The position numbers and the translations under genes are program-made. A DNA stretch of 64,000 bases from an uncultured Acidobacteriaceae bacterium (GTDB lineage Bacteria; Acidobacteriota; Terriglobia; Bryobacterales; Bryobacteraceae). Below are positions 2,276-19,887 of the stretch, in pieces. Each line of letters starts with the position of its first letter. Position 1 is the stretch's first letter. The stretch is from assembly GCA_963845995.1 (NCBI GenBank), contig CAWJUO010000028.1, positions 46,405 to 110,404 on the forward strand. Reading direction: 5' to 3'. The notes under the pieces are model-generated. The model saw only the letters and a program-made list of their open reading frames with translations. It searched no databases and was not told the DNA's origin.

Positions 2276-5050
2276 GTGAATACTATGACTGCGGATCCAC
2301 TTCTTGCTCTCGAACGTCGAGACTTCCTCAAGCTCGCTGGTGCAATGACGGCGTTCGGCTCCGGTACCACTGCTCAAGGCGTTCTTCGCGGTCGAGTTGC
2401 TATCGTGATCGATGCGAACGATCCGGTCCCCTCCGCCGGTCCCGTGAAGTGGGCTGCCGGACAGCTCCTTCAAGCGCTCTCGGCCAAGGGTTCGCCCTGC
2501 GGCATCTTTCCGTCTCTTGAGTCAGGCCGAGGGTTCTGCGTTCTTCATCCTGGTGGCGAATCCCGCCTCCGATTTGGCCAGAGGGTTCTCCGCGCCCTGT
2601 ACACCCCTCGAAGCGCCCGAAAGCATCCGAATGACTCCTGGGAAGGTCGCGGAATCACCCGCAATCCTGATATCCGGAAGTGATGCCGCGAGGCTTTCTG
2701 TACGGTCTGCTCGAACTAGCTGAGCGCGTTCAGTTCGGAGATAATCCCTCCGCCGCATTGTCCTTGAGCAAGGCCGTCGAGGAGAAATCCGCCAATGAGG
2801 TCAGGAGTGTAGCGCGCGCCTTCTGCAGCGAAATCGAAGATAAGACCTGGTACTACGACAAGAACTTCTGGCGGGGATATTTGGATGTGATCGCCGCAAG
2901 CCGGTTCAATCGATTCAACCTTGCCTTTGGTTTCGGATACGATTTTCCACGCGGCGTCACGGGAGACTACTTCCACTTTGTTTATCCATATCTAGTCGAT
3001 GTTCCCGGCTATAACGTCCGGGTCGTCCGGCTCACCGCCGGCGATGGTCAAACTCCCGGGCCGCTTTCGAACGAAGAAAGAGAGAGAAACTTCGACATTC
3101 TGCGCTTTGTCGCCGCCGAAACCGGCGCTCGCGGCCTTCAATTTCAACTGGGTATTTGGACCCACGCCTATCAATGGACAGATAGCCCTCGCGCCGATCA
3201 TCGAATTGAAGGGCTGACGCCGGAGACTCACGCCGCCTATTGCCGTGATGCTCTAGCGATTATTTTGAAGGCCTGCCCCCAAATTCAAGGACTCACCCTT
3301 CGAGTTCATGGCGAGAGTGGGATTCCTGAAGGGAGCTATCCGTTCTGGAAAACTCTCTTTCAAGCGATCTCCGGCAGCTGGCCGCAAGATCGAAATCGAG
3401 ATGCACTCTAAGGGCGTCAACAGCACCATGATCGACATAGCCGCGGGCACCGGCATGCCAGTGAAATTGGGCGCCAAATACTCAGCGGAGCACCAGAGCC
3501 TTGGCTATAACCAGGCGGATATCCGCGAACTGGAAATACCGCGGCCGAGCCGCATGGAAACCGGCCTCTTTAGCGTCAGCAACGGCGCGCGCCGTTTCAC
3601 GCGCTATGGATACGCCGATTTTTTTCAGGAGGGGAGCCGGTATAAAGTGCTCTTCCGCCTATGGCCCGGAACACAGCGCCATTTGCTCTCGGCCGACCCG
3701 GAGATGGCGGCGGCCTTCGGACGAACATCTAATTTCTGTGGAGCCGCCGGACTGGAACTCTGCGAACCCTTGACCTTCAAAGGCCGTGAAGGTTCGGGGC
3801 TGCCAGGTGGCCGCTGTGCCTACGCGGACGAATCTCTCAACCCCAAGGACGACTGGAGAAAATTCGAATACTACTACAGGGTTTGGGGACGCCTCCTGTA
3901 TAACCCCGGTGCGGATCCGGACACTTGGCGCAGATATCTAAGGAGCGATTTCGGGGCAGGCGCGGACTCGGTGGAAACTGCCGTTGCCAATTCCTCTCGC
4001 GTTCTTCCATTGCTGACCTCGGCCCACCTTTCCTCCGCCTCAAATCACTCCTTTTGGCCCGAGTTATACACCAACATGCCAATCGTGCTGGGCAGCGAAC
4101 CTTCGCCCTATAGCGACACGCCCACGCCTAAATGCTTTGGAACCGTCAGCCCCCTCGATCCGCAGCTATTTTCGACAATCGTCGAGCACGCCGCCGATCT
4201 ACTCGCTGCCCGTTCCAATCCAAAATATTCTCCGGTGGAAGTAGCGCAATGGTTGGACGGCTACACGGCGGCAGCGGCAAAGGCACTATCTGCTGCCCAT
4301 CGTCAGACGAAATCGAACACTTCTCCTGAGTTCCGCCGGATTGAAGAGGATGTCCTCATCCAGAATGGCCTGGGACAATTCTTCGCGGCGAAGTTACGGA
4401 GCGGAGTACTCTTTGAAATCTATCAGCGGACCGGCGATTCCGATGCCGGCAAACTGGCTTTAGAGCAATATCTCAAGGCGCGCGATTCTTGGACAGCTAT
4501 GGCGCGCCGGGCTCAAAATATTTACCGCGCCAACATCTCTTACGGGGATGTCCCGATCCGGCAAGGCCACTGGATAGATCGCGTCTCAAGCATCGAAAAG
4601 GATCTCGACGCCATGAAGGCAGCTTTGCAGCAGAAGCCCGGCGCAGAAGCGGGATCGCAACAAAAAGCGCGGCAGGCGATACAAGCTGTCATGCAACCAA
4701 CCCGGCGTCCTTCTATTCGCTGCAGCCATACGCCGCCTCAGACCTTTCAACCAGGTAGATCGCTTTCTCTGTCGCTCTCCCTAGCTGAGACGAATGGGCA
4801 TGCACTTCCTTCTTCAGTTCTCTTATGTTATCGGCATGTGAACCAGGCGGAGCGCTGGCGTTCTGTCGAAATGCGGTATGCGGACCGCTCTTTCGAATCC
4901 GCTATTGCGGGTGATTACACGAACTCCCCCTTCCCCCTGCAATACTATTTCGAGCTCAGGCGCGGGAATTCCGAAGCGTGGTTCTATCCAGCGTTCAACG
5001 CGGCGTTATCTAACCAGCCTTACTACGCAGTTTTCAAAAGGGAAAAATAG
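2276..5050 (+). pseudogene. Tat-exported large hydrolase-like protein (alpha-glucuronidase/GH-like N-terminal module), split over four frames
   Basis: Twin-arginine signal 'ERRDFLKLAGAMTAFG'. The sense continues across ORFs 2276..2683, 2517..2723, 2680..3411 and 3308..5050: 'SAFFILVANPASD...ILISGSDAA/RGFLYGLLELAERV' and 'FWKTLFQAISG/GRKIEIEMHSKGV'. Shifts lie near 2490-2530, 2688 and 3380. The functional family is only loosely recognised. Confidence 0.6.
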
Positions 5051-5075
5051 AGCCTCCGGATCAGCTCATAAATTT

Positions 5076-5570
5076 TCAATGACCGTTTCCGCACGAAACC
5101 GGTTTGCTTCCCCACGGTGCGCCCAACCTCACCCATTTCGTTAAGGTATCGATATCTTGCACCGGCAGTTTACTTCCGGGAGGCATCGTGACATCTCCAT
5201 CTTGCCGAATCACGTGAATGAGGATGCTTTGTTCAGGCTTCCCGGGGACAATCGTCGCTCCGTTCTTGCGTACTGCGACCAGCCCTTCGCGGTGTAAGAA
5301 TGATACGTTGCCATTCTTCAAGCCATCGTTGTGACACATAATGCAGTGCTCGCATAGAATCGGCTTGACCTCACTTTCGAAAAACCAACTGTGCCGCGGT
5401 TCTTTGCCCTGCGCGTGCATCTGAGCACTGAACGCCACAAGAGCCGCCAGAAATACTCTCGACTTATTGCACCGCGCCGACTGCGAACTGGCTACCCGCC
5501 CGAACAGCTTTGCTGCCGTTAAAGTCAATCTCAAGTAGTTTCTCACTCTGAACCTGTTGCCCGTTCTCAT
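5076..5570 (-). CDS. c-type cytochrome domain protein (planctomycete-type cytochrome c domain)
   Basis: 'KPILCEHCIMCHNDGLKNGNVSF...TMPPG' contains a CxxCH haem motif, preceded by a signal-like 'VFLAALVAFSAQMHA'. The start is uncertain: the only start codon in frame overlaps the upstream gene by ~100 nt. Confidence 0.65.
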   Translation of the reverse strand: MRTGNRFRVRNYLRLTLTAAKLFGRVASSQSARCNKSRVFLAALVAFSAQMHAQGKEPRHSWFFESEVKPILCEHCIMCHNDGLKNGNVSFLHREGLVAVRKNGATIVPGKPEQSILIHVIRQDGDVTMPPGSKLPVQDIDTLTKWVRLGAPWGSKPVSCGNGH

Positions 5571-6594
5571 CTTGTAATGTATTCACAATCTGCCGTGTAC
5601 GCCTGTCGATAATGTCGCCGCTTGATGGAATCACATACCGGCCGTCTATGCTCAGTGTTATCCAACCGGGCATGTCTCTGGTCTTGATGCTCGCGATCTG
5701 TTTAGGTGGCATAACTGTGCTGTCGAAAACATGCACATAGTTATTGGCGCCGTCCGCTAGCCAGAGTTCTTTCTCGTCCGGCGTCAATGCGATTCCGTGA
5801 CTCGGACACCCGTGACGTTTAGTAGGACCTTTTTCGTAGCCTTGAACCTGTACCTTGCAAACTTCTTTCCCGGTTTTTATATCGCCGACCTCGAAGCCGA
5901 GAAGATCGTTTACGTTAACAAAGCACAAAGTGTTACTTCCGTTCACCGTGAATGGGCGTATCACATTTGAGAACGGCCCGACTCGTTGAACCACGCTGCG
6001 CGTTTTCGGATCTGCAACCAGAAGATAGTTGAGGTGGAGACCAGCTAAATAAACGCGGCTCCCATCCGCGGCATAGATCGTATTGTGCGAACCCGAGTTG
6101 GTCTGGACTTTCGCTAGTACGTCTCCGCTTAACGCATCCACCACAGTCCAAAATGGCCCTTCAAAGGAAGGTACGTACAGGATTTTGCCATCTGGTGAGA
6201 TCGCCATCCGGTCACACCCGCCCTCGTAGGTTTTATCCCAAAGCATTTTGTCCGTCGCCAGGTCAAAAGAAGCCAAACGATTTTGCGTGCTTACGTACAA
6301 TCGGCCCGTCTTCGCGCTGGCAACAATGCCTTTGACGTTTTCCGGCTTGCGTCCAGGAACCAGATTCCAAGTTGGGATGCGTTTCACAAACTTGTACTGC
6401 TTATCCATGTCGAAAACAATAATTCCGATGCCCCCGTATTCAAGGTAGTTCCGGATGCCGGGAACGGCTACATACAGTAAGTGCCGGCTCGTGCCGTTAG
6501 CGCCATCCGCGCGCGCCGGCATCGAAATACAACCGCAGACAATCAGAACTGCGCACACTCTTACAATCCGGGAATAGAAATAATTGAGTTCCAT
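5464..6594 (-). CDS. Secreted beta-propeller repeat protein (YncE/YVTN-like)
   Basis: 376 aa with a signal peptide 'VCAVLIVCGCISMPARA'. Repeated 'DG..LYV', 'ISPDGKILYV' and 'LTPDEKELWLAD' blades. Confidence 0.7.
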   Translation of the reverse strand: MELNYFYSRIVRVCAVLIVCGCISMPARADGANGTSRHLLYVAVPGIRNYLEYGGIGIIVFDMDKQYKFVKRIPTWNLVPGRKPENVKGIVASAKTGRLYVSTQNRLASFDLATDKMLWDKTYEGGCDRMAISPDGKILYVPSFEGPFWTVVDALSGDVLAKVQTNSGSHNTIYAADGSRVYLAGLHLNYLLVADPKTRSVVQRVGPFSNVIRPFTVNGSNTLCFVNVNDLLGFEVGDIKTGKEVCKVQVQGYEKGPTKRHGCPSHGIALTPDEKELWLADGANNYVHVFDSTVMPPKQIASIKTRDMPGWITLSIDGRYVIPSSGDIIDRRTRQIVNTLQDENGQQVQSEKLLEIDFNGSKAVRAGSQFAVGAVQ

Positions 6595-6618
6595 AACTTT
6601 CTCGCGATTTGCTCTTCC

Positions 6619-6888
6619 TTACATCGCTGCAGCAGCGCTAGTGAAAGTGCCCTCCGCGGAGCTGCCAATTTGCAAATCCCGTGAGATTCTACTTTCGTAC
6701 GTCCGCGAACCCATGACATAGCAGCCGATCGTCCTGAGAAACCGTGTCATCATTTCGGGATCCATACCCTTCCCGTCATCGAACGTGTCAGTGGTTTCGA
6801 GCCAGTCCACACTTCCGTCTCTTCGAGCAATGAAGCCGTCCAGGCTGGCTACCATGTGGATGGTTACGCGAGACTCTGCTTCCTGCAT
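6619..6888 (-). pseudogene. Truncated dihydrofolate-reductase-like (RibD C-terminal family) remnant
   Basis: 'VTIHMVASLDGFIARRDGSVDWL...CYVMGSRTYE' matches the first ~65 aa of the family, then diverges and stops. The next gene starts 25 nt downstream, so there is no room for the missing ~110 aa. Confidence 0.5.
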
Positions 6889-7015
6889 ACGGCAACCCGG
6901 GAGGACATTGGCATTGCTCCAGTGTAAACGTCACCCATTGTAAAAAATGTTTGACACGCATCCCCTAAGATGCTATCTTCCCTATGTCAAATATTTTTTA
7001 CACGGAGCCGCCCCC

Positions 7016-7444
7016 ATGACTACAAGCCTTTCCTACCGCGAAAAAACTCTCTACGCCTCGCTTGCGGCGGAACTCGTCGTGTACTGCCCTTACTTCTTCC
7101 TGCACCAGCAAAACTCCGTCAACAAGGTGGCAGGCATGATTGTCGCCATCATCGTGCTGCAAATAATCCTGCAGTCGATCATTGCCGCACTGACTCGGAA
7201 CCGTGTAACGGATGAGCGCGACAGGTTGATCGAGCTACGAGGCTATCGCGCCGGTTATCTGGTGCTCGCCTCACTCATGGTAATCGGGCTGGGCATGTTG
7301 TGGTTTCACGCGACCGTCGGCCACCTTCGATTGGACAGCCGGATCATAGGACTTCATTTCTTGAACGTCTTTTTCGGCATGTTGGTCATCGCGGATATAA
7401 CGAAGACCGTCACGCAGATCGTGGCTTACCGGAAGACGCTCTGA
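7016..7444 (+). CDS. DUF2178-like four-TM membrane protein
   Basis: ATG 7016 with GGAG 8 nt upstream. A hydrophobic four-helix protein whose stop overlaps the start of the XRE gene (TGATG), the usual DUF2178/HTH pairing. Confidence 0.7.
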   Translation: MTTSLSYREKTLYASLAAELVVYCPYFFLHQQNSVNKVAGMIVAIIVLQIILQSIIAALTRNRVTDERDRLIELRGYRAGYLVLASLMVIGLGMLWFHATVGHLRLDSRIIGLHFLNVFFGMLVIADITKTVTQIVAYRKTL

Positions 7445-8089
7445 TGCCCGCCATACGCAATCGGATTCGAGAACTCCGGGCCCTCCGCGAGATGACCCAA
7501 CAGGAACTCGCCGATCGAGTCGGCGTCACCCGGCAGACAGTCATAGCCATCGAACAAGACAAGTATTCGCCTTCCCTCGAGACTGCGTTCAAAGTGGCAA
7601 TCGTGCTGGGTGTGCCCCTTGACCAGTGTTTCCAGTACGACCCACGCGGTAAGCGCTGAAAAAACGAACCCAACCCAATTCGTTTGGCAAAATCAACTCG
7701 GGGGTGGCGCGGACGGTCTTGCCGTCTGCGCCTGCCTGCGAGCTGCCACATAAAGATCAGCAGCACAAATTACACTACAAAACAACTTTTGAGCGTTCTT
7801 TCCGGCGGTCCCTCCGTAACATCGAGCAGTTCGGTCACGCCGCTCCGCGAAGCACAAGCCGCCGAGCGCCTCGTCCCGCTACGCTTCACAAAAACGGCCT
7901 CGACTACAAACCATTTATGGCGTGGGCCTGCCAGGCCAATTGATACTGGCTTACGACGATCGGCCTCGGATCTGCGCCCATCCCGCCGTGCTCGCGCCTA
8001 TCCATAAACGTCAGATTTTAGCGCTGATGTTGGAACCTGAAATCGATCTACCTGCGCGGCTTTTGATAACGCGCGTCAGGCGCGTGACC
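7436..8089 (+). repeat. Left copy of a direct duplication: intact XRE gene plus a collapsed, decayed copy of the two genes found intact at 14522-15972
   Basis: Manual alignment gives three blocks. 7436-7745 matches 14119-14415 with about 15 substitutions and 4-5 single-base indels. 7740-7915 matches 14831-15045. 7916-8089 matches 15511-15778. About 415 and 465 nt are missing between blocks, plus a further ~100 nt inside block 3. Confidence 0.85.
7444..7659 (+). CDS. XRE-family helix-turn-helix transcriptional regulator (71 aa)
   Basis: 'IRELRALREMTQQELADRVGVTRQTVIAIEQDKYSPSLETAFKVAIVLGVPLDQCFQY' is a typical short Cro/C1 HTH. Confidence 0.9.
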   Translation: MPAIRNRIRELRALREMTQQELADRVGVTRQTVIAIEQDKYSPSLETAFKVAIVLGVPLDQCFQYDPRGKR

Positions 8090-8165
8090 GTTGGCTCCTC
8101 TTTTTCAGAATCCTGCCAGAGAGCATTATGCCGAATTTGCTACAAGGTAAAATACAGAGGAACGC

Positions 8166-8351
8166 ATGCCTGATTTCGAAGAAATTATTCCCGATATTCC
8201 CGGTTCCGATCCGGTTGGGAAACAACCCGAGAAGGCGTCTTCCCTTCCGGTCTGGCATAAGCCCGAGCTTTCGCGCATTTCCATCGCGGCTTCCTCCGGG
8301 CCTCACACCCGCGCGGAAACGGGTGACGATGCCGGTATCTTTGTCTCTTGA
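8166..8351 (+). CDS. Candidate RiPP (lasso-type) precursor peptide, 61 aa
   Basis: SD AGAGGAA at 8156-8162. The TGA overlaps the next ORF. It contains the 'WHKPEL' aromatic-xxPxL leader-like motif, has an acidic core and ends in Ser. It sits immediately 5' of PqqD and the B2 peptidase. Confidence 0.55.
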   Translation: MPDFEEIIPDIPGSDPVGKQPEKASSLPVWHKPELSRISIAASSGPHTRAETGDDAGIFVS

Positions 8352-8371
8352 TTTGCGGAAACGGTGCCGGA

Positions 8372-8653
8372 ATGTCTGTGAACTCGCAATCGATTGTGAA
8401 GAGAACGCCTGGCCTGATGAGCACGCGGGTAGAGAACGACACTTACATTTTGAATCCCATGCGGGATCAATATACCGGCCTGGACGAAATCGGACGCCGC
8501 ATCTGGGATTTGCTCGAAGCGCCAAGCCGGGTGGATCGCCTCTGCGATCAGGTCTTGCACGAGTATCAGGGAGATGCGCAACAGATTGCGAGTGAGCTTT
8601 TCGAGTTCCTGAACGAACTGGAGACTGAGGGTTTACTGGAAGTCGGTAAATAG
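8372..8653 (+). CDS. PqqD-family peptide chaperone (RiPP recognition element, lasso B1-type)
   Basis: 93 aa. 'RTPGLMSTRVENDTYILNPMRDQYTGLDEIGRRIWDLLEAPSRVDRLCDQVLHEYQGD...FLNELETEGLL' is the canonical PqqD pattern. An alternative TTG start lies at 8348. Confidence 0.85.
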   Translation: MSVNSQSIVKRTPGLMSTRVENDTYILNPMRDQYTGLDEIGRRIWDLLEAPSRVDRLCDQVLHEYQGDAQQIASELFEFLNELETEGLLEVGK

Positions 8654-8674
8654 CGTAGCCGCGGAATTCTCAAA

Positions 8675-9178
8675 TTGCGAAAACCCGATTTCTCCAAGCT
8701 TCGGGGGCAAAGCGGCGCGGACCTGCGGTTGCTCGTCGAAGCGTTCTTCTGGCTGGCTCTGGCTCGCTTCGCCCTACTGGTTATGCCCTTCCGCTGGACT
8801 GCAACTCTACTGGCTCTTCAGCCCGGCGACGGCACCGTCCGGGAGTATCCTTTCCGCGGTCTGCATACAGAAGCTTTTGTGCGCCGTGCAAGCCGGGCTT
8901 TAACGCTTGCCGCTGCCCGCACTCCCTGGAAAAGCAACTGCGCCGCGAAAGCTGTAGCGGGTGCCGGAATGCTGCGCTGTCGGAAGATCCCCGCCACCGT
9001 GGCGCTCGGTGTAAATACCCCGCTGCGCCCGGTGGCAGCGCACGCATGGTTGTCGGCCGGCGGAATCGTCGTCACGGGAGCGCCAGTGCATAAGAAGTAC
9101 CGCGTCATTGCAACATTCGCTTACAACCCAAAGTGTCCCGGCTCGTCGAAATGTACCACTACTCAGCCTTTTCTCTAA
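8675..9178 (+). CDS. Lasso-peptide B2-type transglutaminase-fold cysteine peptidase
   Basis: 'LLVEAFFWLALARFALLVMPF' N-terminal helix, 'PWKSNCAAKAVAGAGMLRCRKIPATVALGV' (catalytic Cys context) and 'AAHAWLSAGGIVVTG' (His context). TTG start. The 3' end overlaps the kinase gene. Confidence 0.75.
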   Translation: MRKPDFSKLRGQSGADLRLLVEAFFWLALARFALLVMPFRWTATLLALQPGDGTVREYPFRGLHTEAFVRRASRALTLAAARTPWKSNCAAKAVAGAGMLRCRKIPATVALGVNTPLRPVAAHAWLSAGGIVVTGAPVHKKYRVIATFAYNPKCPGSSKCTTTQPFL

Positions 9179-10020
9179 ACATCGATTCTGAGGTGGAGTT
9201 GCCCGAACTTCCGCGCGGCTCTGGCGTTCCGGACGTGGCAATCCGCCTCGGCACGGTAAGCAGAACCGAAACGCCGGCCCGGATTGACGAAGAAAGAGCC
9301 TTTCCGCGGAATGTCGGAGGATTCCACATCAGGGGCGGCCGCGAGATCGTCGTCGATCTGCTTCCCCACGCTGAAATGGGAGTCGTGCGAACCCTGCTCG
9401 CGGGCAGGTTTATGGGCTATCTCCTGCGCCAGCGCGGCTGCCTGCCTCTTCATGCGAGCGCTGTCGCCATAAACGGACAAGCTGTGCTCTTCCTTGGCGA
9501 AAGCGGAGCGGGAAAATCGACTACCGCGGCCGCCTTTTATCGCCGCGGCCACAAAGTGCTGGCGGACGATGTTGCGGCCGTGCGTCCAGCGAACTCCGGC
9601 CTGGAGTTACAGCCCGCATGGCCTGGGCTTCGTCTCCTGCAAAATAGCCTCGATGCAATCGGCGCAGAAACCCCGCCTTCGGATTTCTGTGACGAAAAGC
9701 ACGTGTACCGATTGAAAAGCCCCGTCCTGGCCGGGCCGTTACCCGTGAAAAGGATGTACTTTCTGGATTATCACCCTTCCGGCGGCTCGTTAGCCGTCCG
9801 TTCCTCGGCCCTCTCCGGACTGTCTGTTGTCGCGCTTCTAAATGCCCACTCGCTGCTCAGAAGTTGGCGCGCGGATCATGCGCTTCGGCAAATAAATCTG
9901 GATCGCGCAGCCGCGGTGGGAACCGCTGGCCACGTCCGCCGGCTAACCCGGGCCCGGTCTTTGGATCTCTTGCCCCGCCTGGTTGATTTTGTCGAAGCGG
10001 ATGTGATGGCCGATGACTGA
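9151..10020 (+). CDS. HPr-kinase-related serine kinase (HprK-related kinase A / lasso precursor kinase type)
   Basis: 'MYHYSAFSLNIDSEVELPELP' N-terminus and 'LHASAVAINGQAVLFLGESGAGKSTTAAAF' P-loop, as in the HPrK C-terminal domain. The ORF track start at 9133 is an upstream GTG. Confidence 0.8.
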   Translation: MYHYSAFSLNIDSEVELPELPRGSGVPDVAIRLGTVSRTETPARIDEERAFPRNVGGFHIRGGREIVVDLLPHAEMGVVRTLLAGRFMGYLLRQRGCLPLHASAVAINGQAVLFLGESGAGKSTTAAAFYRRGHKVLADDVAAVRPANSGLELQPAWPGLRLLQNSLDAIGAETPPSDFCDEKHVYRLKSPVLAGPLPVKRMYFLDYHPSGGSLAVRSSALSGLSVVALLNAHSLLRSWRADHALRQINLDRAAAVGTAGHVRRLTRARSLDLLPRLVDFVEADVMADD

Positions 10021-11149
10021 ATGCCTGTCCCGGCTGTTGGCTCCTATGAGCACAGACTTGTTCCTGAAGCACTACCAGGCAAGAGAACATTTCTACGTCG
10101 CCAGATCGTGTCCTGGTTACTACGCCGATTTGCTCAGCGTCGGTGATATCGACACGGTTCTGCAATCCAGCCAATTGCCGGCTGCCGTGCTCAATGTAGT
10201 GAAAGGTGGCGTGCGATGTCCGCTCGAAGATTGGTCCCGTTTCGTATCCTCTTCGAGGGGTCCGCTTCAGATCGCCGTTCCAGAGAAGCTTCTAAGCTTG
10301 TATGCCGATGGCGCCACTCTTATCCTGAATCAGGCCCATGCAGTGCTGCCGGCGCTCACCGAAACCACCCGGATGTTAACGCTGGAGCTAGGCTTCCCGA
10401 CGCAGACGAACATCTATATAACGCCCCGTGATTCGACTGGCTTCAGCAAGCATTCAGACGAGCACGACGTGCTGATCCTGCAGATAGCCGGCAGCAAATC
10501 TTGGAGAGTATACCCGGCCGATACCAGCCAAGCTGAATTCGACCTGAAATCCGGAGAGCTTCTGTATATTCCGCGCGGAATGTTTCACGATGCCCGATCG
10601 CGCGATGAAGACTCGATCCATATCACGCTCGGTTTAAGGCCGCCATACGGTTTTGAACTGATCCGGGACCTTGCCGCTCTGGCAGCTGAACGCGTAAGTT
10701 TTCAGAGGCCTGCACCACCACGTTTCGCGGGCGCTGAAGCGATGGCGCTATTCGAGGCCGATCTACTGGCGGACTTACAGGCCTTCGTCGGCGAACTAAG
10801 GCCCTCGAACCTCACCATCCTCCGCCAGGGCTTGCTGACACAGCAGGCTGAGACTTGGCCCGGCCGGTTCGCCGACCTTCGCGTTCTTAGCCGGATGACT
10901 CCGGATACCGTCGTGTGCCGGCGTCCCGAAATTCCGGCTGCGATCAAAGAGGACGGAAAGTTTCTGCACGTTGCCTTCGGCGGTAGACAAGTGACGATAC
11001 CAATTTTCATGCGTGAGCAGCTTGCGCGAATTTTCGGAGACGGAGATTTCGCGATCCGCGAAATTGAGGGAATGATCACCAGTTCGGGCAAGATAAAACT
11101 CGTTGCGGAATTCGTGAGAGCCGGCTTCCATCGGATCGTCAAAATCTGA
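10013..11149 (+). CDS. JmjC/cupin-4 family Fe(II)/2-oxoglutarate-dependent oxygenase
   Basis: 378 aa. 'GFSKHSDEHDVLILQIAGSKSWRVY' (HxD facial-triad context) and 'LYIPRGMFHDARS...SIHITLG' (distal His). Overlaps the kinase stop by 8 nt. Confidence 0.75.
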   Translation: MTECLSRLLAPMSTDLFLKHYQAREHFYVARSCPGYYADLLSVGDIDTVLQSSQLPAAVLNVVKGGVRCPLEDWSRFVSSSRGPLQIAVPEKLLSLYADGATLILNQAHAVLPALTETTRMLTLELGFPTQTNIYITPRDSTGFSKHSDEHDVLILQIAGSKSWRVYPADTSQAEFDLKSGELLYIPRGMFHDARSRDEDSIHITLGLRPPYGFELIRDLAALAAERVSFQRPAPPRFAGAEAMALFEADLLADLQAFVGELRPSNLTILRQGLLTQQAETWPGRFADLRVLSRMTPDTVVCRRPEIPAAIKEDGKFLHVAFGGRQVTIPIFMREQLARIFGDGDFAIREIEGMITSSGKIKLVAEFVRAGFHRIVKI

Positions 11150-12119
11150 TTTTCCGTGAGCTCAACTCTGAGTACAGCGCCAGAAGTTCAGGCTGCACCG
11201 CGGGTTCAGAATCGATCGGCGCAGCAGGATGGGATGAGCGGAGGTGATTCGACTTTGCGTCCCACCGGAACTCGGCCCGCATCAACTCCAAATCACCGGG
11301 GGATGGATCAAGCTGGAAAAAATCCAGAATAGCCGGCAGCTTCTGTGGGGTCAAATCCTCGTAATCCAGACATTTCAAACTCTCGCCGGCGCGGAGGGCC
11401 TGCTGGAAGAAGTCGGCGATTGCCCTTTCAGCCGAATGCCAGATTGTCCCAATACCGGTATCCCTACCCATCCATCCCGGCATGGCGCGCCGGTAGGATG
11501 CGAGGATCTCCGCCGGGCGCCGGAAGAGGAACAAAGCGGGAACCTCCGGAAAGGCGGTCCGGACAATTTCAAACTGCGCAATAGTGAACGAAGTGAACTT
11601 CACAATGTGTGCCCGGTACGATTGCAGACGCGGTCTGCCGGTGTGTAAAAGCAGGTTCCGAAAAAGCGTCACCGCCGGATCGCACCCGGCCGCGATGACG
11701 GGCCAGATGTCGTTATGGGGACCACCTTCGCCAAACACCATATGCTCTTGGGAACAGGCAATTACTTTCGCGAGCAGCGTCGATCCGCAACGGCCCGCAT
11801 GGAATATGAAGCCCGTGGGACCCAGGCAGTCGGAGGCGTCGGGGGCTGAGCGCAGAAAATCAAGAGAGGAAATACATCGCCACGGTTCCGACGGTCTGGG
11901 CGCACCTGCCCGGAGCGCCGCATAAGTGGCAAGCGAGCGGCGGAAAGAACCGTCGTGGCAGTGGTACTGGTTCAGGTCCAGCCACAAAGCGGTGCGCTGA
12001 AATGCGTCGAGTTCAATGGGAATAAGGCCGCCCCTCGCCGAATGTTCGGCTCGAAATTGGTCTTCGGTTAGTCTCAAGTTCCTTTCGGGGTACTTCGTCA
12101 TAATCATCGCTCTCCCCAT
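11139..12119 (-). CDS. Sulfotransferase-family protein
   Basis: 'GFIFHAGRCGSTLLAKV' resembles the PAPS 5'-phosphosulfate-binding loop (PxxGSTxL). The size and position match sulfotransferases seen in kinase-type lasso clusters. Converges on and overlaps the JmjC gene by 11 nt. Confidence 0.6.
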   Translation of the reverse strand: MGRAMIMTKYPERNLRLTEDQFRAEHSARGGLIPIELDAFQRTALWLDLNQYHCHDGSFRRSLATYAALRAGAPRPSEPWRCISSLDFLRSAPDASDCLGPTGFIFHAGRCGSTLLAKVIACSQEHMVFGEGGPHNDIWPVIAAGCDPAVTLFRNLLLHTGRPRLQSYRAHIVKFTSFTIAQFEIVRTAFPEVPALFLFRRPAEILASYRRAMPGWMGRDTGIGTIWHSAERAIADFFQQALRAGESLKCLDYEDLTPQKLPAILDFFQLDPSPGDLELMRAEFRWDAKSNHLRSSHPAAPIDSEPAVQPELLALYSELSSRKIRF

Positions 12120-13384
12120 AAAACGTGACGGTTGAATAAGCCGGCCGCACGCGCAACCGGCATGCCGAGCAGCAGGACCGGATGACGGTACAGAGCCTGG
12201 TTATCTTCAAACAGCCAGAAGCTCAACCGATAAGCAAGCCGGTTCAACAACGAATATCTGGTCTCGAAGTTTGCCAGATACCGGAGCTGCGCCCATCCCT
12301 CGCTGACGGATCGTTTACGGCAGATATCAGGCGCGCTCATCTCGGCCACCGCATACTCCGCCAGAGCGCCAGCCTGCGGCTCTTTCTTCACGAGCCGGGC
12401 AGCGTGCTCGTCAGGTTCCATACCGAACAGAAGTTGCAGCAGGAGAATCGTCTGAGCCGATGCCAGTTCCAGCCCCAAGACGGCGGAAGTTGCTTCAGAA
12501 GCATGCCAGAACTCAGGCTGGCGGTCGACGATCGCCGCCAGATCGCCCAGCCACTTCAACCGGCTCCAGCCATGGATTGCGCCATGCAGGCACAGGTGCA
12601 GGCTGTCGGCATGTGTCAGTCCCGATCGCTCCTCAGCCCAATACGACCACCACTTTGCATCCAGATCCCTGCTGCGCGCCTGTTCGATTCGCCAGTGCAG
12701 TTCAAGACTGACTTTCTTCTCCTCGTGAAAGAAATGCAGATGCCGAAGACGGAGTTCGGTAAAGCGTCGATACATTCCGCCTCTCAGCCACATGTCCGCA
12801 TTCCGAGGCTGCCAGCCGCCCGCCCGCAGAACATCTACTGCGGAAGCAATCTGCTCCGGCTTTATCGCCAGATCCAGGTCCTTACTGTGGCGCAAAGACA
12901 CATCCCCATAAATCCTTTGCGAGAGCATGGGACCCTTGAAAAAGTGATACGCGATTCCGGCACTGGACAGCGCTGAGGAAATCCCCATCAATGCGGAGAC
13001 TAGCCGAAGATTCATCAGCCGTACCTCGCGAGCGCGGCGTTGCAGCGGAGCCTCGAAATCGCCCAGAACATGCTGCATGCCGTGTTCACGCAGAACACGT
13101 TCCGCCAATGCAAAAATGCGATGCCGCTGAATACCCGTCCACAGGCCTTCCGGACTCTGCCCCGCTCGCAATGCCGCTTCGAGTTGACGTTTTTGCCGGG
13201 TAAACCCGTCCGGACCTGCCGGAATGTAGGAACACGCGGCAAGGAAGCGCAACCTCGGATCGATCGTCATCGGCTTTTTGATCGTGTATCTCGCTTCTGC
13301 ATTCGCTTCTTTAGGAGAGTGCCGCAATCGGGCAAACATTCTAAAGATTTCCCGGCGAGCAGATCCGCTCGTTCTGGCGATCAT
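12104..13384 (-). CDS. Nucleotidyltransferase family protein (NTP_transf_5-like)
   Basis: 'FFKGPMLSQRIYGDVSLRHSKDLDLAIKPEQIASAVDVLRAGGW' is a G-x-motif plus DxD of the uncharacterised nucleotidyltransferase family. Overlaps the sulfotransferase start by 16 nt. The true start may be an internal Met. Confidence 0.7.
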   Translation of the reverse strand: MIARTSGSARREIFRMFARLRHSPKEANAEARYTIKKPMTIDPRLRFLAACSYIPAGPDGFTRQKRQLEAALRAGQSPEGLWTGIQRHRIFALAERVLREHGMQHVLGDFEAPLQRRAREVRLMNLRLVSALMGISSALSSAGIAYHFFKGPMLSQRIYGDVSLRHSKDLDLAIKPEQIASAVDVLRAGGWQPRNADMWLRGGMYRRFTELRLRHLHFFHEEKKVSLELHWRIEQARSRDLDAKWWSYWAEERSGLTHADSLHLCLHGAIHGWSRLKWLGDLAAIVDRQPEFWHASEATSAVLGLELASAQTILLLQLLFGMEPDEHAARLVKKEPQAGALAEYAVAEMSAPDICRKRSVSEGWAQLRYLANFETRYSLLNRLAYRLSFWLFEDNQALYRHPVLLLGMPVARAAGLFNRHVLWGER

Positions 13385-13484
13385 GGGCTTATCGGAAACC
13401 GGCTAAAACTGTGCCTGCTCTCGGCTGTGCTCGTCCCCCCGCCGAAATCTGCAAAAACGCTAGGATGAGAGGAGGGCTGTCGCA

Positions 13485-13751
13485 ATGACTTCAACTCTTG
13501 ATTGGTCCCAATGTCCTGCCGTGGAGAGCATCCCTGGCAAAGTCAGCGGCGCATGGGTGTTTAAAGATACCCGCATGCCGGTTGCTACCGTGTTCGAGAA
13601 TTTGGAAGCTGGCTTGACCGTGGAAGAGGTCATGGAAGAATTCTCCGTTACACGCGAACAAATCAACGCTGTGTTGCATTTCGCCGCTCGGAGCTTGGGA
13701 ACGCCCATCCCGCCCCCGGCGCATGCTGCCGCCGATGCTCATTCTCTTTGA
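13485..13751 (+). CDS. DUF433 domain protein (antitoxin-like)
   Basis: 'IPGKVSGAWVFKDTRMPVATVFENLEAGLTVEEVMEEF' is the typical DUF433 core. Strong SD GAGGAGGG upstream. Confidence 0.8.
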   Translation: MTSTLDWSQCPAVESIPGKVSGAWVFKDTRMPVATVFENLEAGLTVEEVMEEFSVTREQINAVLHFAARSLGTPIPPPAHAAADAHSL

Positions 13752-14060
13752 CCACGGCACACCCCGCAGCATTGCCCGCTGGCTTCAGGGTCACAACGTT
13801 GTGGAAGCGATAGCAAGAGGCTGGGTCAGATTAAGAAACGGCGCATTGCTGAAGGCTGCAGAGGAAGCCGGGTTTGATCTTTTACTATCGACCGATAAAA
13901 ACATCCAGTATCAGCAAAACCTCAAAGGCGTCGTATTGCCATCGTGATACTTGGCAACCCGCAACGGCCAGCAGTGCACCGTTACATTGATAGAGTTGTC
14001 GCAGCAGTGAACGCGGCAACACCCGGCAGTTTTGCTGAAGTGGAAATTCCTTATGAATAG
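13735..14060 (+). CDS. DUF5615 (PIN-like) protein, one-base frameshift
   Basis: 'MLILFDHGTPRSIARWL...LLLSTDKNIQYQQNLKG' then, after a missing base at GG 13927-13928, 'RRIAIVILGNPQRPAVHRYIDRVVAAVNAATPGSFAEVEIPYE*'. Overlaps the DUF433 stop. Confidence 0.7.
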
Positions 14061-14125
14061 TCCGTGCGTCTTGGGCTGGGACGGTATCGGCCGCAGCGCC
14101 CTCGAAGTGTCAATTTACCGCTCCG

Positions 14126-14339
14126 ATGCCGCCATACGCAATCGGATTCGAGAACTCCGGCTCTCCGCGAGATGACCCAACAGGAACTCGCCGAATCGGG
14201 TCGGCGTCACCCGGCAGACGGTCTAGCCATCGAACAAGACAAGTATTCGCCTTCCCTCGAGACTGCGTTCAAAGTCGCAATCGTGCTGGGTTGGCCCCTT
14301 CGCCAGTGTTTCCAGTACGACCCTCGCGGTAAGCGCTGA
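14126..14339 (+). pseudogene. Decayed duplicate of the XRE regulator gene at 7444-7659
   Basis: Same ATG context and C-terminus ('AIEQDKYSPSLETAFKVAIVLGWPLRQCFQYDPRGKR'), but several indels break the frame in the HTH region. Confidence 0.8.
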
Positions 14340-14521
14340 AAAAACGAACCCAACCGAATTCGTTTGGCAAAATCAACTCGGGGGTGGCATGGACGCTCTT
14401 GCCGTCTGCGTCTGCCATGGCGATGACAAATTTCAAAAAACCTCGATCTCCCCCAGATCCAAACACTTACACCTTTTCCCGCCGCCCCCCGCGAACGCCG
14501 CTAATTCATACTCGCGGACAA

Positions 14522-15058
14522 ATGAGCAATACTCCACCGCGAAAACCCGGCCCCAACACAATTGCTGGAAAAGCGAATTCCAGCAAAAATTCCACTAAAC
14601 ACAGTTTGCGAAGCAACCCGGATAACCTCCTTCCCGGCGAAACAGAAGAAGACTACAACGCCATCTGGGACATCTGGGCCGCCGAATACGATTCCGCCAG
14701 CCCCGCCACCGAGCGTCTGATCGAATTCATAGTGAACGACGACCGTCTCGTACGCTTCTCCGTAGCCGCCGTCATCAACGCGCAAATCGCTCTCGCCAAA
14801 GCCGAAATGTTAGGCGATCAAACCCAAATCGAGCTGCTACATAAGGATCTGCAGAACAAATTCCGCTACAAAACAAGCTTTGAGCGTTCTTTCCAGCGGT
14901 CCCTCCGCAACATCGAGCAGTTCGGCCAGCGCCGCGTCCGCGAAGCACAAGCCGCTCTGCGCCTGGTTATCCTTGAAAATAAAGCCGCTTGCCTCGTGGC
15001 AGCTCACACTTCACAAAAACGGCCTCGACTACAAAACAGTTCTCCCCTTGTCAACTGA
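14522..15058 (+). CDS. Hypothetical protein (conserved N-terminal 'GKANSSKNSTKHSL' motif family)
   Basis: ATG 14522. 'RKPGPNTIAGKANSSKNSTKHSLRS' resembles a widespread uncharacterised family, followed by a helical region. The ORF track start at 14384 lies inside the duplicated intergenic sequence. Confidence 0.55.
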   Translation: MSNTPPRKPGPNTIAGKANSSKNSTKHSLRSNPDNLLPGETEEDYNAIWDIWAAEYDSASPATERLIEFIVNDDRLVRFSVAAVINAQIALAKAEMLGDQTQIELLHKDLQNKFRYKTSFERSFQRSLRNIEQFGQRRVREAQAALRLVILENKAACLVAAHTSQKRPRLQNSSPLVN

Positions 15059-15153
15059 ATTCGTCCCCGAAACAGCGGAAACCGACGAAACGCCGCCCAG
15101 CAGAACCGCGCGCGTAAGCAAGCGGCTACCGCGCCAGTGATAAGCTATCTCGC

Positions 15154-15972
15154 GTGCGGCGCTTGCTGGATGCTCTGAAGAATGAGCGCTCGGAAGTTTC
15201 ACTGGATATCGCGTCTCTTGAGCTAGCCAGTATCGAATTTCCCCGGTTGGACTTTGAAGCGTCCCTATTCCGGCTCCAAAACATAGCGGAGCAGATTAAG
15301 TCTCAGCTGACGGAAGACGCGACGCCCCTCGAGTTCATCAAGGGTCTTAATGAATTGCTGTTCGACACCTTGCAGTTTCGCGGCAATGACGAAGACTATT
15401 ACGATCCGCGGAATAGCTGTCTGAACTCTGTATTAAGCCGTCGCGTCGGAATTCCGATCACGCTTTCAGTAATCTACATAGAGGTTGCCCGGAGGCTCGG
15501 TCGTCCCGTATATGGTGTCGGCCTTCCCGGCCACTTCATCGTCGCTTACGACGATGGCAACTCGTGTTACTGGATAGACCCGTTCCATGCCGGGCGGCTG
15601 CTGTCCTTTGCCGATTGCGCCGCGCTTGCAAAGGAAACGTCGGGAGTCGATCTGCGCGCGAATCCCGCCGTCCTCGCGCCTGTCCATAAACGGCAGATTC
15701 TCGTCCGGATGTTGAGCAACTTGAAAGCGATCTACTTGCGCGGTCAAGCTTTCGATAAAGCGCGCCAGGTGCTTGACTTGCTCATTGAAGCCATGCCCGA
15801 GTACGCGGAGGAGTACCGGCATCGTGGCTTGATTCACCTTCGGCAGATGAATCATCGCGCGGCCAAATCGGATTTGGAGGCTTATCTAAGATTGGAGCCG
15901 AACGCGCCTGAGCGCGAACAGGTGCAGAAACAACTTCTGCTGATTGAGCGTTGGAAGGCCGGACTTAACTGA
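15154..15972 (+). CDS. SirB1-like transglutaminase-fold + TPR protein
   Basis: 'NSCLNSVLSRRVGIPITLSVIYIEVARRLGRPVYGVGLPGHFIV' followed by a TPR-like C-terminus 'EYRHRGLIHLRQMNHRAAKSDLEAYLRLEPNA'. Confidence 0.8.
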   Translation: MRRLLDALKNERSEVSLDIASLELASIEFPRLDFEASLFRLQNIAEQIKSQLTEDATPLEFIKGLNELLFDTLQFRGNDEDYYDPRNSCLNSVLSRRVGIPITLSVIYIEVARRLGRPVYGVGLPGHFIVAYDDGNSCYWIDPFHAGRLLSFADCAALAKETSGVDLRANPAVLAPVHKRQILVRMLSNLKAIYLRGQAFDKARQVLDLLIEAMPEYAEEYRHRGLIHLRQMNHRAAKSDLEAYLRLEPNAPEREQVQKQLLLIERWKAGLN

Positions 15973-17312
15973 GTTCGTGGACTTTGTCCGCAATCAGTTT
16001 CAGATCGCGCACAAATAGGCCATACTCTTCTTCGTACCTGTCCGGCATCCGGAGAATGGCGGAGGGGTGAATCGTGGCCACCAGTTGTTTGGCCCAGCGG
16101 TGTGGAAAGAAAATGCCGCGTTCCGTGGTGATTCGGAAATCGCGGCCCATTAGAGATTGCGCGGCCGTTGCGCCCAGGCAAACCACCAGTTCCGGTTCGA
16201 TGGCCGCAAGTTCGGCTTCGAGCCAGGGTCGGCAGGCCGAAATCTCCATCCCGTTCGGCTTGGCGTGAATGCGCCTCTTGCCGCGCTCGATCCACTTGAA
16301 GTGTTTGACGGCATTGGTGACGTAAATCTTTTCGCGGTCGAGTCCCGCCTCGTGCATCGCTTTACCCAGCAGTCGTCCGGCTGGACCGATGAAGGGGTGG
16401 CCGCGCTGGTCTTCTTCGTCGCCCGGCTGCTCGCCGACCATCACCACCTTGGCGTCCTGCGGCCCTTCGCCAAATACGACCTGGGTGGCGCGTGCATAGA
16501 GTTCGCATCCTCGACAGGCAGGCGCAGCCGCTTGAAGAGATTTCAAATTGTGAGAGGCTGGAACCCATTCCGCCGCCGAAGTCTTCTGATTGCTGGCCAT
16601 CTGAAGTACTCGACTGCCGGCCTCTGAAAGAAGTTTCGGGATGATCTGCGCTTCGGGTAAGGTGGCCCAGTGCCGTACGGGCATTTCGGCTTTCATGGCC
16701 TTCAGGTTCACGCGGGCTGGGTTGAAAATGGAGGCGTAGTAGTTCTGCCAAAGGTCTTCGAGCGCATCGCCGTCCGGCGCGGCGGATGCTGGGGACGCCG
16801 GGTCCAAAAGTGAGCTTCTCGCAATCCCAATGGGCGCTCCGATCGGGTGTCAGGATCGCCCAATTCATGCTTCCGAATCGGCGCGTGAACCAGGGCGCCA
16901 CCGCTTCGACAATGTAGTGGTCGGGCGCGTACCAGGCGGCAAACTGTTCCGGATCGGAACCTTCGATCCGCCGGAAGCGCACAAAGGCGGTCATCTTGTG
17001 CATGTCGCGTTTCACGGCCTTGCTCATCAACTCGAGCGAGCGGACATCGTCGTCGATATCGATCTTCAGCAGGTGCCGTTCGCCGTGTGTTAGCCGGTAC
17101 AGCACGCGATAGAGCAGTGGCCAGCGGTTTTCATCGCGATGCAAAGCCACAGTTCTTGCGAGGGCAAGGAAGTCCTTTGGGACGGACGGCGAGTTCGCGG
17201 ATGATTCGGGCGTTTCACGTTCAAAAAGCGACGGACCCCAATACGCTTCCTCCGGAGGAACATTCGCCGCCAGAAGCCGCCGTGCTTCTTCGCGCCAGCT
17301 TGCAAAGTTCAA
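15965..17312 (-). CDS. udgX: UdgX-family uracil-DNA-binding protein fused to an N-terminal DUF4130 domain, one frameshift
   Basis: N-terminal part (ORF 16362..17312): 'RWPLLYRVLYRLTHGERHLLKIDIDDDV...HKMTAFVRF'. C-terminal part (ORF 15965..16807): 'GEQPGDEEDQRGHPFIGPAG', 'KRRIH' (16265-16279) and 'HPSAILR'. The frames join between 16770 and 16807. Confidence 0.85.
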
Positions 17313-18550: not shown

Positions 18551-18636
18551 TTACTCTATTAGATGCAGCATTTTTCCAAAGGATGGAACCACTCGCCCGG
18601 AATTCCCGTATAGATAGAGGCGACCCGTCCATCTAA

Positions 18637-19884: not shown

Positions 19885-19887
19885 CCG

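Follow-up and report, generated by a model that had tools for sequence, protein, structure and literature searches.

A soil acidobacterium carries, within the 64-kb stretch of DNA analysed here (contig CAWJUO010000028.1; the whole stretch is referred to as the window, and positions are counted from its first letter), an intact gene set for the cleavage and chemical modification of a small ribosomal peptide. The set forms a cassette of seven intact, tightly coupled open reading frames (ORFs) at 8166-13384, in which the precursor, B1, B2 and HprK-like kinase genes of a lasso-type cluster are joined by genes for a JmjC oxygenase, a sulfotransferase-like protein and a nucleotidyltransferase, and from which the lasso cyclase is missing. 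The best explanation for this arrangement is descent from the phosphorylated lasso-peptide clusters of Acidobacteriota, in a lineage that went without the cyclase and kept the rest as a compact unit. We put at about one in two the probability that the product is a linear, multiply decorated, leader-cleaved peptide containing no macrolactam. The cassette belongs to a monophyletic clade of cyclase-less loci, the ring-acceptor geometry is lost in most of the predicted cores of that clade, and the six enzyme genes of the cassette are clearly under purifying selection.

The cassette and its missing cyclase

A lasso-type cassette of this composition, devoid of a cyclase, had been proposed in an earlier reading of the same DNA made from the sequence alone (hereafter the sequence-only reading), and the proposal stands: all seven ORFs lie exactly where that reading had placed them, and its PqqD, B2, kinase, JmjC and NTP_transf_5 domain calls were reproduced by a Pfam/NCBIfam profile search. 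The JmjC gene overlaps the kinase gene by 8 nucleotides (nt), the NTP_transf_5 gene overlaps the sulfotransferase-like gene by 16 nt, both of these being on the minus strand, and the convergent JmjC and sulfotransferase-like genes share 11 nt. Scans of the cassette for consensus promoters and terminators returned sites no more frequently than in shuffled sequence.

The same reading had found no asparagine synthetase (Asn synthetase)-like cyclase in the window, which was confirmed by motif, hidden Markov model (HMM) and tblastn searches. The SGGxDS motif occurs in none of the six frames of the window, and its five largest unassigned ORFs encode molybdoenzymes, cytochrome oxidase and the like rather than a protein of the Asn_synthase family. 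An HMM made from the lasso cyclases of related loci (53 sequences) had no match in the window; with its filters switched off it yielded only noise (best E 0.12), as did tblastn with three cyclases as queries (E of at least 0.15). A search for cyclase pseudogenes by tblastn and unfiltered hmmsearch, covering the window as well as the other cyclase-less loci (up to 10 kb on either side, as far as each contig extends), detected no remnant, and the loss of the cyclase is for that reason taken to be old. The best 120 matches to the cyclase of L002, a related locus described below, included none assignable to a cyclase-less genome. The literature was searched for cyclase-less lasso clusters and for HprK-related kinase A, and nothing relevant was found.

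A clade of cyclase-less loci

Related loci, 157 in number, were gathered by gene-context look-ups and collection scans and annotated with HMMs for all seven protein families. The scan of metagenome contigs contributed at least two useful relatives (L084 and L085), and the best kinase match in the genome contig collection was 70% identical to the window kinase. When the kinases of 40 loci were placed in a neighbour-joining tree, the window fell into a single cyclase-less clade of 11 loci (the window, L151, L001, L005, L006, L007, L154, L146, L149, L008, and L150), to which L157, found after the tree had been made and with a kinase 70% identical to that of the window, was added as the twelfth. 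The loci of this clade are all from Bryobacteraceae-like Acidobacteriota. The sequence-only reading had left it to be checked whether orthologous loci always carry a cyclase; the 11 closest ones are also without it.

In the kinase tree, L002, L152, and L084, all with a cyclase, make up the sister clade, and the two clades lie within a wider set of acidobacterial kinase-lasso loci that also have a cyclase (L009-L019, L021, L023, and L025). In the sister clade, orthologues of the precursor, PqqD, B2, kinase and JmjC of the window are accompanied by an Asn_synthase gene of about 625 amino acids (aa) adjoining the precursor; a cyclase gene directly adjoins the precursor in 16 of the 16 cyclase-bearing relatives with an identified precursor. 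Two distinct PqqD proteins are encoded in L002, L084, and L156, one upstream of the precursor and cyclase and the other upstream of B2 (at 6791-7084 and 9216-9527, respectively, in L002), and the cyclase-less clade retains only the B2-adjacent copy. The most economical reading of these gene contents would be that the cyclase was lost once in the lineage, together with the upstream second PqqD.

An apparent counter-example, P0102/L156, has a kinase fragment 73% identical to the window kinase and a cyclase on its contig. It was rejected as such, being an L002-type locus whose nanopore assembly is frameshifted; the fragment is 81% identical to the L002 kinase, and L156 groups with L002 and is no exception.

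Two further groups of PqqD-B2-kinase loci, separate from the clade of the window, likewise lack a cyclase over distances of up to 10 kb. One comprises 10 Dyadobacter genomes (L051, L052, L055, L056, L059, L066, L067, L071, L078, and L080), which also carry an NTP_transf_5 gene, and the other three deltaproteobacterial metagenome-assembled genomes (MAGs; L022, L032, and L038); several of these loci are on isolate-genome scaffolds of megabase size. Upstream of PqqD, neither group showed a convincing small ORF. In haloarchaea (Halosimplex, Natronobiforma, Halorubrum, and others), kinase-containing lasso loci were observed with a cyclase, B2, PqqD and often NTP_transf_5 (L024, L027, L028, L030, L036, L041, L043, L044, and L048), and in both L027 and L036 there are two cyclases and several copies of the kinase.

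Precursor peptides and predicted cores

The leader of the window precursor carries WHKPELSRISIAASS, with a Ser at position -2 in the register of the family, and bears WHKPEL, a YxxPxL-like motif. A common leader form, W[HQR][KR]Px[LIV]SR[IV]x[IV]xx[T/S]x, is found in all the precursors, and both the leader motif and the T/S at -2, the recognition element of the leader peptidase, are kept in every precursor compared. The position of the small ORF and its leader sequence are conserved in 13 loci across both clades, homologous peptides lying directly upstream of PqqD in L001, L005, L007, L146, L149, L150, L151, L154, and L157 and adjoining the cyclase gene in L002, L084, and L152. The predicted core of the window, GPHTRAETGDDAGIFVS, ends in a C-terminal Ser (the precursor terminates in ...GIFVS), and a terminal Ser is present in seven of the ten precursors of the cyclase-less clade. 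The window and L151 precursors are 75% identical overall and 61% identical in the core, with a ratio of nonsynonymous to synonymous substitution rates (dN/dS) of about 1.4. Fast evolution of the core beside a conserved leader is usual in the precursors of RiPPs (ribosomally synthesised, post-translationally modified peptides).

The cores of the two clades differ in what a lasso cyclase would require. Cyclase-bearing relatives have an Asp or Glu at core position 7-9 followed by a tail of at least seven residues in 16 of 16 precursors; in the sister clade, read in the T(-2) register, the cores are AGPSGSSD8GDTLAAS, NTQNPGSVD9MDTGNGPS, and SGGDGFD7D8GDGCSNSG, and 13 more distant cyclase-bearing acidobacterial precursors, read in the canonical register, likewise have Asp or Glu at 7-9 and mostly a terminal Ser. 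In the same T/S(-2) register, the cores of the cyclase-less clade are GPHTRAETGDDAGIFVS in the window, GPHPRAEAGTTDDFINVIS in L151, and GGRSRLRPTTSDDLRVS, GGHPRLKPTTGDDIAS, GSRRPLHPANSDS, HRRFASHACDDIHV, FASPGSGRGDDTAG, KLGGKPFKSATTDDFPPASV, KLGIKFATTDDFVS, and GARPRLRPTADDFVS in the others. An acidic residue at 7-9 is absent from eight of these ten, Glu at position 7 being retained in the window and L151 only. In this clade a DD motif occupies core positions 10-14 (L007 has a single Asp, at position 12), and only one to six residues follow it, too few for a threaded tail. This conserved (T)TxDD motif is probably a descendant of an ancestral DxD acceptor region, and the pattern as a whole fits a lineage freed from macrolactam geometry whose peptides would still be processed by B1 and B2.

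The maturation enzymes

The PqqD-type B1 protein scored 52.1 bits against PF05402 (cutoff 23.4) and 50 bits, under the cutoff of 80, against the narrower NF033536 lasso_PqqD_Bac. It is the orthologue of the B2-adjacent PqqD of L002 (54% identity); the other PqqD there, encoded upstream of the precursor, is not its orthologue (21%). For B2, lasso_biosyn_B2 (NF033537) gave 80 bits against a cutoff of 33 and Transglut_core3 (PF13471) 76.8 bits; the Cys of SNCAAK is present in 18 of 18 aligned homologues and the His of AHAW in all of them save the truncated copy of L008.

The kinase matched Hpr_kinase_C (PF07475) at 35.2 bits (cutoff 33.3). Its residues H101, G121-K122-S123-T124, and D139-D140 are invariant in 43 homologues and correspond to the essential residues of BsfK (PMC10368454). 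An identical 289-aa kinase occurs in a public collection as P0001, and about 1,900 homologues are detectable, the named ones being mostly from Bryobacteraceae or Bryobacterales MAGs. The sequence-only reading had regarded the system as close to HPr-rel-A, which could not be sustained: at 38.1 bits against the TIGR04352 cutoff of 200, membership of the kinase in HprK_rel_A was rejected. The kinases of the Dyadobacter and deltaproteobacterial cyclase-less groups are also under that cutoff.

The JmjC protein scored 77.6 bits against JmjC_2 (PF08007; cutoff 22), with H147, D149, and the distal His (H192/H203) invariant in 42 homologues. Its best Protein Data Bank (PDB) matches by sequence are NO66, MINA53, YxbC, and YcfD, and the top Foldseek match of its AlphaFold2 model (mean predicted local distance difference test score 90.9) is NO66, with a template modelling score of 0.76 over the whole chain, including the C-terminal winged helix. 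Judged by sequence and model, the enzyme is a ribosomal-oxygenase (ROX)-type hydroxylase with predicted JmjC, helical, and winged-helix domains. Adjacent kinase and JmjC genes occur in at least nine cyclase-bearing loci (L002, L012, L015, L021, L023, L025, L077, L084, and L152), one of which, L077, is cyanobacterial, so that the JmjC protein is a conserved lasso-associated tailoring enzyme, apparently undescribed so far. The sequence-only reading had pointed to the coupling of JmjC to the kinase as one that, to its knowledge, is not a described lasso tailoring step. In the literature searched, no paper describing a JmjC enzyme in lasso clusters was found, nor one linking the ROX-type JmjC subfamily to lasso peptides; the coupling is not peculiar to the cyclase-less cassette. 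A 2025 survey placed bacterial PF08007 JmjC proteins in RiPP-like contexts and reported folds resembling recognition elements in the eukaryotic ones (PMC12710340).

The assignment of the sulfotransferase held in part: the score against Sulfotransfer_3 (PF13469), 20.7 bits, lies under the cutoff of 27, and backing came at the level of motifs. A profile of 12 orthologues had as its best PDB matches the CurM sulfotransferase (ST), OLS ST, and TPST1 (E 0.03-0.5), the alignments falling on the RCGSTLL (5'-phosphosulfate-binding, 5'-PSB) and LFRxPxxxLxS (3'-phosphate-binding, 3'-PB) motifs; RCGSTLL and FLFRxPxxxLxS are invariant among the orthologues, which are found in cyclase-less and cyclase-bearing loci alike. 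The nucleotidyltransferase, by comparison, matched NTP_transf_5 (PF14907) at 145.2 bits (cutoff 31.2) over profile positions 6-249 of 249. Its gene is accessory: the window, L151, and L150 have it, and most other members of the clade do not. In L151 the orthologue was predicted at 403 aa, and translation may therefore begin at an internal start.

Some loci carry other accessory genes. In L152, five consecutive genes without a Pfam match (250, 257, 330, 341, and 328 aa; 4523-9118) replace the sulfotransferase downstream of JmjC. In L146 (6471-8888), L150 (7165-8858), and L157 (5650-8028), an alternative accessory set adjoins the precursor and is made up of two conserved genes (about 340 and 230 aa) without a Pfam or NCBIfam match, usually with a Sulfotransfer_2 gene; the protein of about 230 aa has a P-loop-like LCASIGRVAST motif.

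Selection and mobility

Selection was estimated by comparing the window with its closest relative, L151, which comes from an independent metagenome and has a 92% identical kinase. The dN/dS values were 0.12 for PqqD, 0.26 for B2, 0.19 for the kinase, 0.32 for JmjC, 0.25 for the sulfotransferase, and 0.29 for the nucleotidyltransferase, at dS of 0.17-0.26. Across the clade, B2, the kinase, JmjC, and the sulfotransferase keep their catalytic or cofactor motifs. Taken together, the low dN/dS, the intact ORFs and the conserved motifs make simple decay unlikely.

The cassette stands in unrelated genomic neighbourhoods in L001, L146, L149, L150, L154, and L157. In the window it sits between diverged direct repeats (7448-8087 and 14118-15700) of one chromosomal stretch, consisting of an XRE regulator, a 224-aa gene, and a Transglut_core2/TPR gene (Table 1). 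Repeat families D1-D8 relate the two copies, the left one being 78-100% identical to 14129-15555, and the duplication is backed by ORF translations and by blastn against L151, which has the same insertion with a shorter duplication. The unrelated neighbourhoods and the duplicated flanks indicate that the cassette moves as a unit without a cyclase.

Table 1. Genes of the cassette and the repeat copies on either side of it, by position in the window.
Feature	Position	Strand	Basis or content
Precursor peptide, 61 aa	8166..8351	+	ORF; AGAGGA ribosome-binding site 6 nt before ATG
B1 / PqqD-type RiPP recognition element	8372..8653; alternative TTG start 8348	+	PF05402
B2 leader peptidase, transglutaminase-fold Cys protease	8675..9178	+	NF033537, PF13471
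HprK-like peptide kinase	9151..10020; alternative start 9133	+	PF07475; precomputed Pfam PF27840 'ScmC'
Predicted ROX-type JmjC Fe(II)/2-oxoglutarate hydroxylase with C-terminal winged-helix domain	10013..11149	+	PF08007, structure match
Sulfotransferase-like protein	11139..12119	-	Sub-cutoff PF13469 and 3'-phosphoadenosine 5'-phosphosulfate (PAPS)-binding motifs
NTP_transf_5 nucleotidyltransferase	12104..13384	-	PF14907
Left flanking repeat copy	7448..8087		Intact XRE helix-turn-helix gene (7444-7659) and fragments of the 224-aa and Transglut_core2/TPR genes
Right flanking repeat copy	14118..15972		Frameshifted XRE copy (14064-14339), intact 224-aa and Transglut_core2/TPR genes

Three features of the region were noted in passing. 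Next to the cassette, the stretch 13355-14336 holds a DUF433 gene (13485-13751), a 74-aa ORF overlapping it (13723-13947), and the incomplete copy of XRE, all of them missing from the otherwise collinear L151; the DUF433 gene and the 74-aa ORF may be a toxin-antitoxin-like insertion. Further downstream, a DUF4130/uracil-DNA-glycosylase gene on the minus strand (15965-17312) is broken into two ORFs that overlap in different frames, its counterpart in L151 being a single ORF of 449 aa, so that either a frameshift (a pseudogene) or an assembly error is involved. Finally, between the window and L151 the dS of the cassette (8118-13276), at 0.17-0.26, amounts to about half the value for the flanking genes (14337-21017; 0.33-0.49), and the cassette may have been exchanged between lineages more recently than the genomes diverged.

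Proposed pathway and alternative explanations

The order of events proposed here draws on published work on lasso kinases, PsmN, CanE and the Bsf proteins together with the presence of the ROX-type JmjC enzyme; every chemical step, as well as the linear end product, is something that we infer. By analogy with lasso B1 biochemistry, B1 would first bind the conserved WHKPx[LIV]SRI leader. The kinase, assisted by B1, would then phosphorylate the C-terminal Ser, as do the kinases of the paeninodin type and BsfK: the HprK-like kinases of lasso clusters act on the linear precursor, phosphorylating its C-terminal Ser (PMC8498205), and BsfB1 stimulates its kinase (PMC10368454). Hydroxylation of a core side chain by the JmjC enzyme would come third, with the Asp of (T)TxDD, Arg, and His as candidates, in keeping with the action of CanE, the lasso kinases and a methyltransferase on linear precursors (PMC8498205). 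The sulfotransferase-like enzyme may next O-sulfate a hydroxyl, and the NTP_transf_5 protein, where present (as in the window), may add a sugar or a nucleotide to the phosphate, in the manner of the PsmN nucleotidyltransferase of pseudomycoidin, which attaches hexoses to the C-terminal Ser phosphate (PMC8498205). B2 would lastly cleave after the T/S(-2)-x site, and there is a precedent for this step: in vitro, BsfB1 and BsfB2 cut off the leader with no cyclase present (PMC10368454). The predicted product is a linear peptide of about 17 residues in which no macrolactam is formed. A linear decorated peptide was one of three explanations offered by the sequence-only reading, and it is the one favoured by the comparison of the cores. 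The further proposal that the cyclase-shedding lineage constitutes a separate RiPP type, in which B1 and B2 only deliver and release the decorated linear peptide, is advanced a shade more tentatively.

Several observations weigh against a linear product of a functioning pathway. The cassette contains no transporter gene, and no product of it has been observed to date. The leader/core boundary is set by alignment, and the canonical YxxPxL register would place the DD motif at positions 8-9 in four of the ten cyclase-less cores. The cores of the window and L151 offer G1...E7 (or S...E8/E9) with a tail of 10-12 residues, which is compatible with a lasso given an external cyclase, and the cyclase search of the source genome covers the 64-kb window out of the 125-kb NCBI contig that carries the identical kinase. 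The genes flanking the cassette have dN/dS of 0.02-0.05, several-fold below the cassette values; in L008 the B2 gene is truncated, and L149 has no B2 and an adjacent IS66 insertion sequence fragment.

The alternative that survives best, doubtful though we consider it, is a split lasso cluster whose cyclase is encoded elsewhere in the genome, the product then being a threaded lasso with phospho, hydroxy and sulfo decorations. It is the more plausible for this window owing to the retained Glu: the core GPHTRAE7TGDDAGIFVS, with its boundary taken from the alignment, would match the small residue 1, Glu7 and tail of a lasso core, and Gly1...Glu7 with a long tail is kept in L151 too. Lasso systems typically have such a leader motif, such a T/S at -2, and B1 and B2 proteins of this kind, and tailoring from outside a cluster is known, as with the peptidylarginine deiminase (PAD) of citrulassin (PMC8498205). 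Against this stand the absence of any cyclase within the 64-kb window and the direct adjacency of cyclase and precursor in all 16 cyclase-bearing relatives with an identified precursor; a split would moreover have to account for a cyclase loss common to the whole 12-locus clade, for a cassette that changes its genomic context without a cyclase, and for the eight cores of ten that have no acceptor at 7-9 and whose DD motif leaves tails of one to six residues.

That the cassette is a decaying remnant, namely a lasso cluster minus its cyclase whose product is no longer made, was another of the explanations in the sequence-only reading, and the dN/dS values and conserved catalytic motifs leave it improbable. 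The damaged or missing B2 genes of L008 and L149 (the latter beside its IS66 fragment), the precursor dN/dS of about 1.4, the excess of the cassette dN/dS over that of the flanking genes, and the duplication scars and frameshifted XRE copy around the window cassette would all suit decay. Set against these are the seven intact and tightly coupled ORFs of the window, enzyme dN/dS of 0.12-0.32, well under 1, and catalytic motifs that are invariant in clade members sharing only 58-70% kinase identity. Rapid change of a core next to a conserved leader is normal in RiPP precursors, and the lack of a cyclase pseudogene remnant implies that the loss is old and that the other genes have persisted after it.

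Last of all, it is very improbable that the enzymes serve another substrate, for instance a protein, with the 61-aa ORF merely incidental: ROX-type JmjC enzymes do usually hydroxylate ribosomal proteins and there is no known product, but the position and leader of the small ORF are conserved in 13 loci of both clades, the leader has a lasso-type motif with T/S at -2, the C-terminal residue is mostly Ser, and B1 and B2 are dedicated leader-processing proteins.

Comparison with known systems

It is the cyclase that defines a lasso peptide, and genome-mining tools demand one. The cassette resembles a paeninodin/pseudomycoidin-type cluster minus its cyclase and exporter, and lacks, at least locally, the gene by which lasso systems are recognised. 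About half of the roughly 8,000 lasso-type discrete recognition-element proteins retrieved by RRE-Finder had no accompanying peptidase and cyclase and were treated as possible false positives (PMC7470986). The 12-locus clade shows that at least some cyclase-less hits of this kind are conserved, selected and self-contained peptide-maturation systems. Should the product indeed be linear, phosphorylation, JmjC hydroxylation and sulfation would be combined on one RiPP scaffold, and a clear case would be at hand of a RiPP class evolving through the loss of its signature step; if the loci of the 10 Dyadobacter genomes and of the three deltaproteobacterial MAGs are also functional, the cyclase would have been lost more than once. 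In acidobacterial lasso clusters, the sulfotransferase and ROX-type JmjC enzyme are a conserved and apparently uncharacterised tailoring pair, which could yield new enzymes for linear peptides whatever the topology of the product.

Compared with the paeninodin and pseudomycoidin clusters (kinases PadeK, ThcoK, SyanK, and BsfK; nucleotidyltransferase PsmN), the cassette shares a precursor ending in Ser, a split B1 (PqqD) and B2, an HprK-like kinase with the H...GxSGxGKS...DD signature, and the optional NTP_transf_5 and putative sulfotransferase genes (PMC8498205, PMC10368454). It differs from them in having neither a cyclase nor an ATP-binding cassette (ABC) exporter, in the ROX-type JmjC gene translationally coupled to the kinase, in a WHKPxLSRI leader with a spacing shorter than the canonical YxxPxL...T(-2), and in the absence of the ring acceptor from most cores of its clade.

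The nearest systems are the uncharacterised sister loci (L002/L003, L084, L152, and L156), which have an orthologous precursor leader, PqqD, B2, kinase, and JmjC, with kinases 58-60% (L002 and L152) and 51% (L084) identical to that of the window; L002 and L084 also share the orthologous sulfotransferase. The sister loci agree with the window in gene order and overlaps. Unlike the window, they have the Asn_synthase-type cyclase of about 625 aa beside the precursor, a second PqqD in L002, L084, and L156, and core Asp residues at 7-9 with tails of seven to eight residues.

With HprK-related kinase A (TIGR04352), the cassette has in common a distant HprK-like P-loop kinase and a PqqD-family protein, the window kinase scoring below the level of membership. 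As regards the oxygenase, CanE of canucin A and BpmG/PbsQ of biphenomycin-type RiPPs are likewise Fe(II)/2-oxoglutarate hydroxylases that act, or are predicted to act, on a ribosomal precursor peptide, and BpmG and PbsQ are known JmjC hydroxylases (PMC12257519); unlike all three, the JmjC protein of the window has the predicted architecture of a ribosomal oxygenase, closest to NO66.

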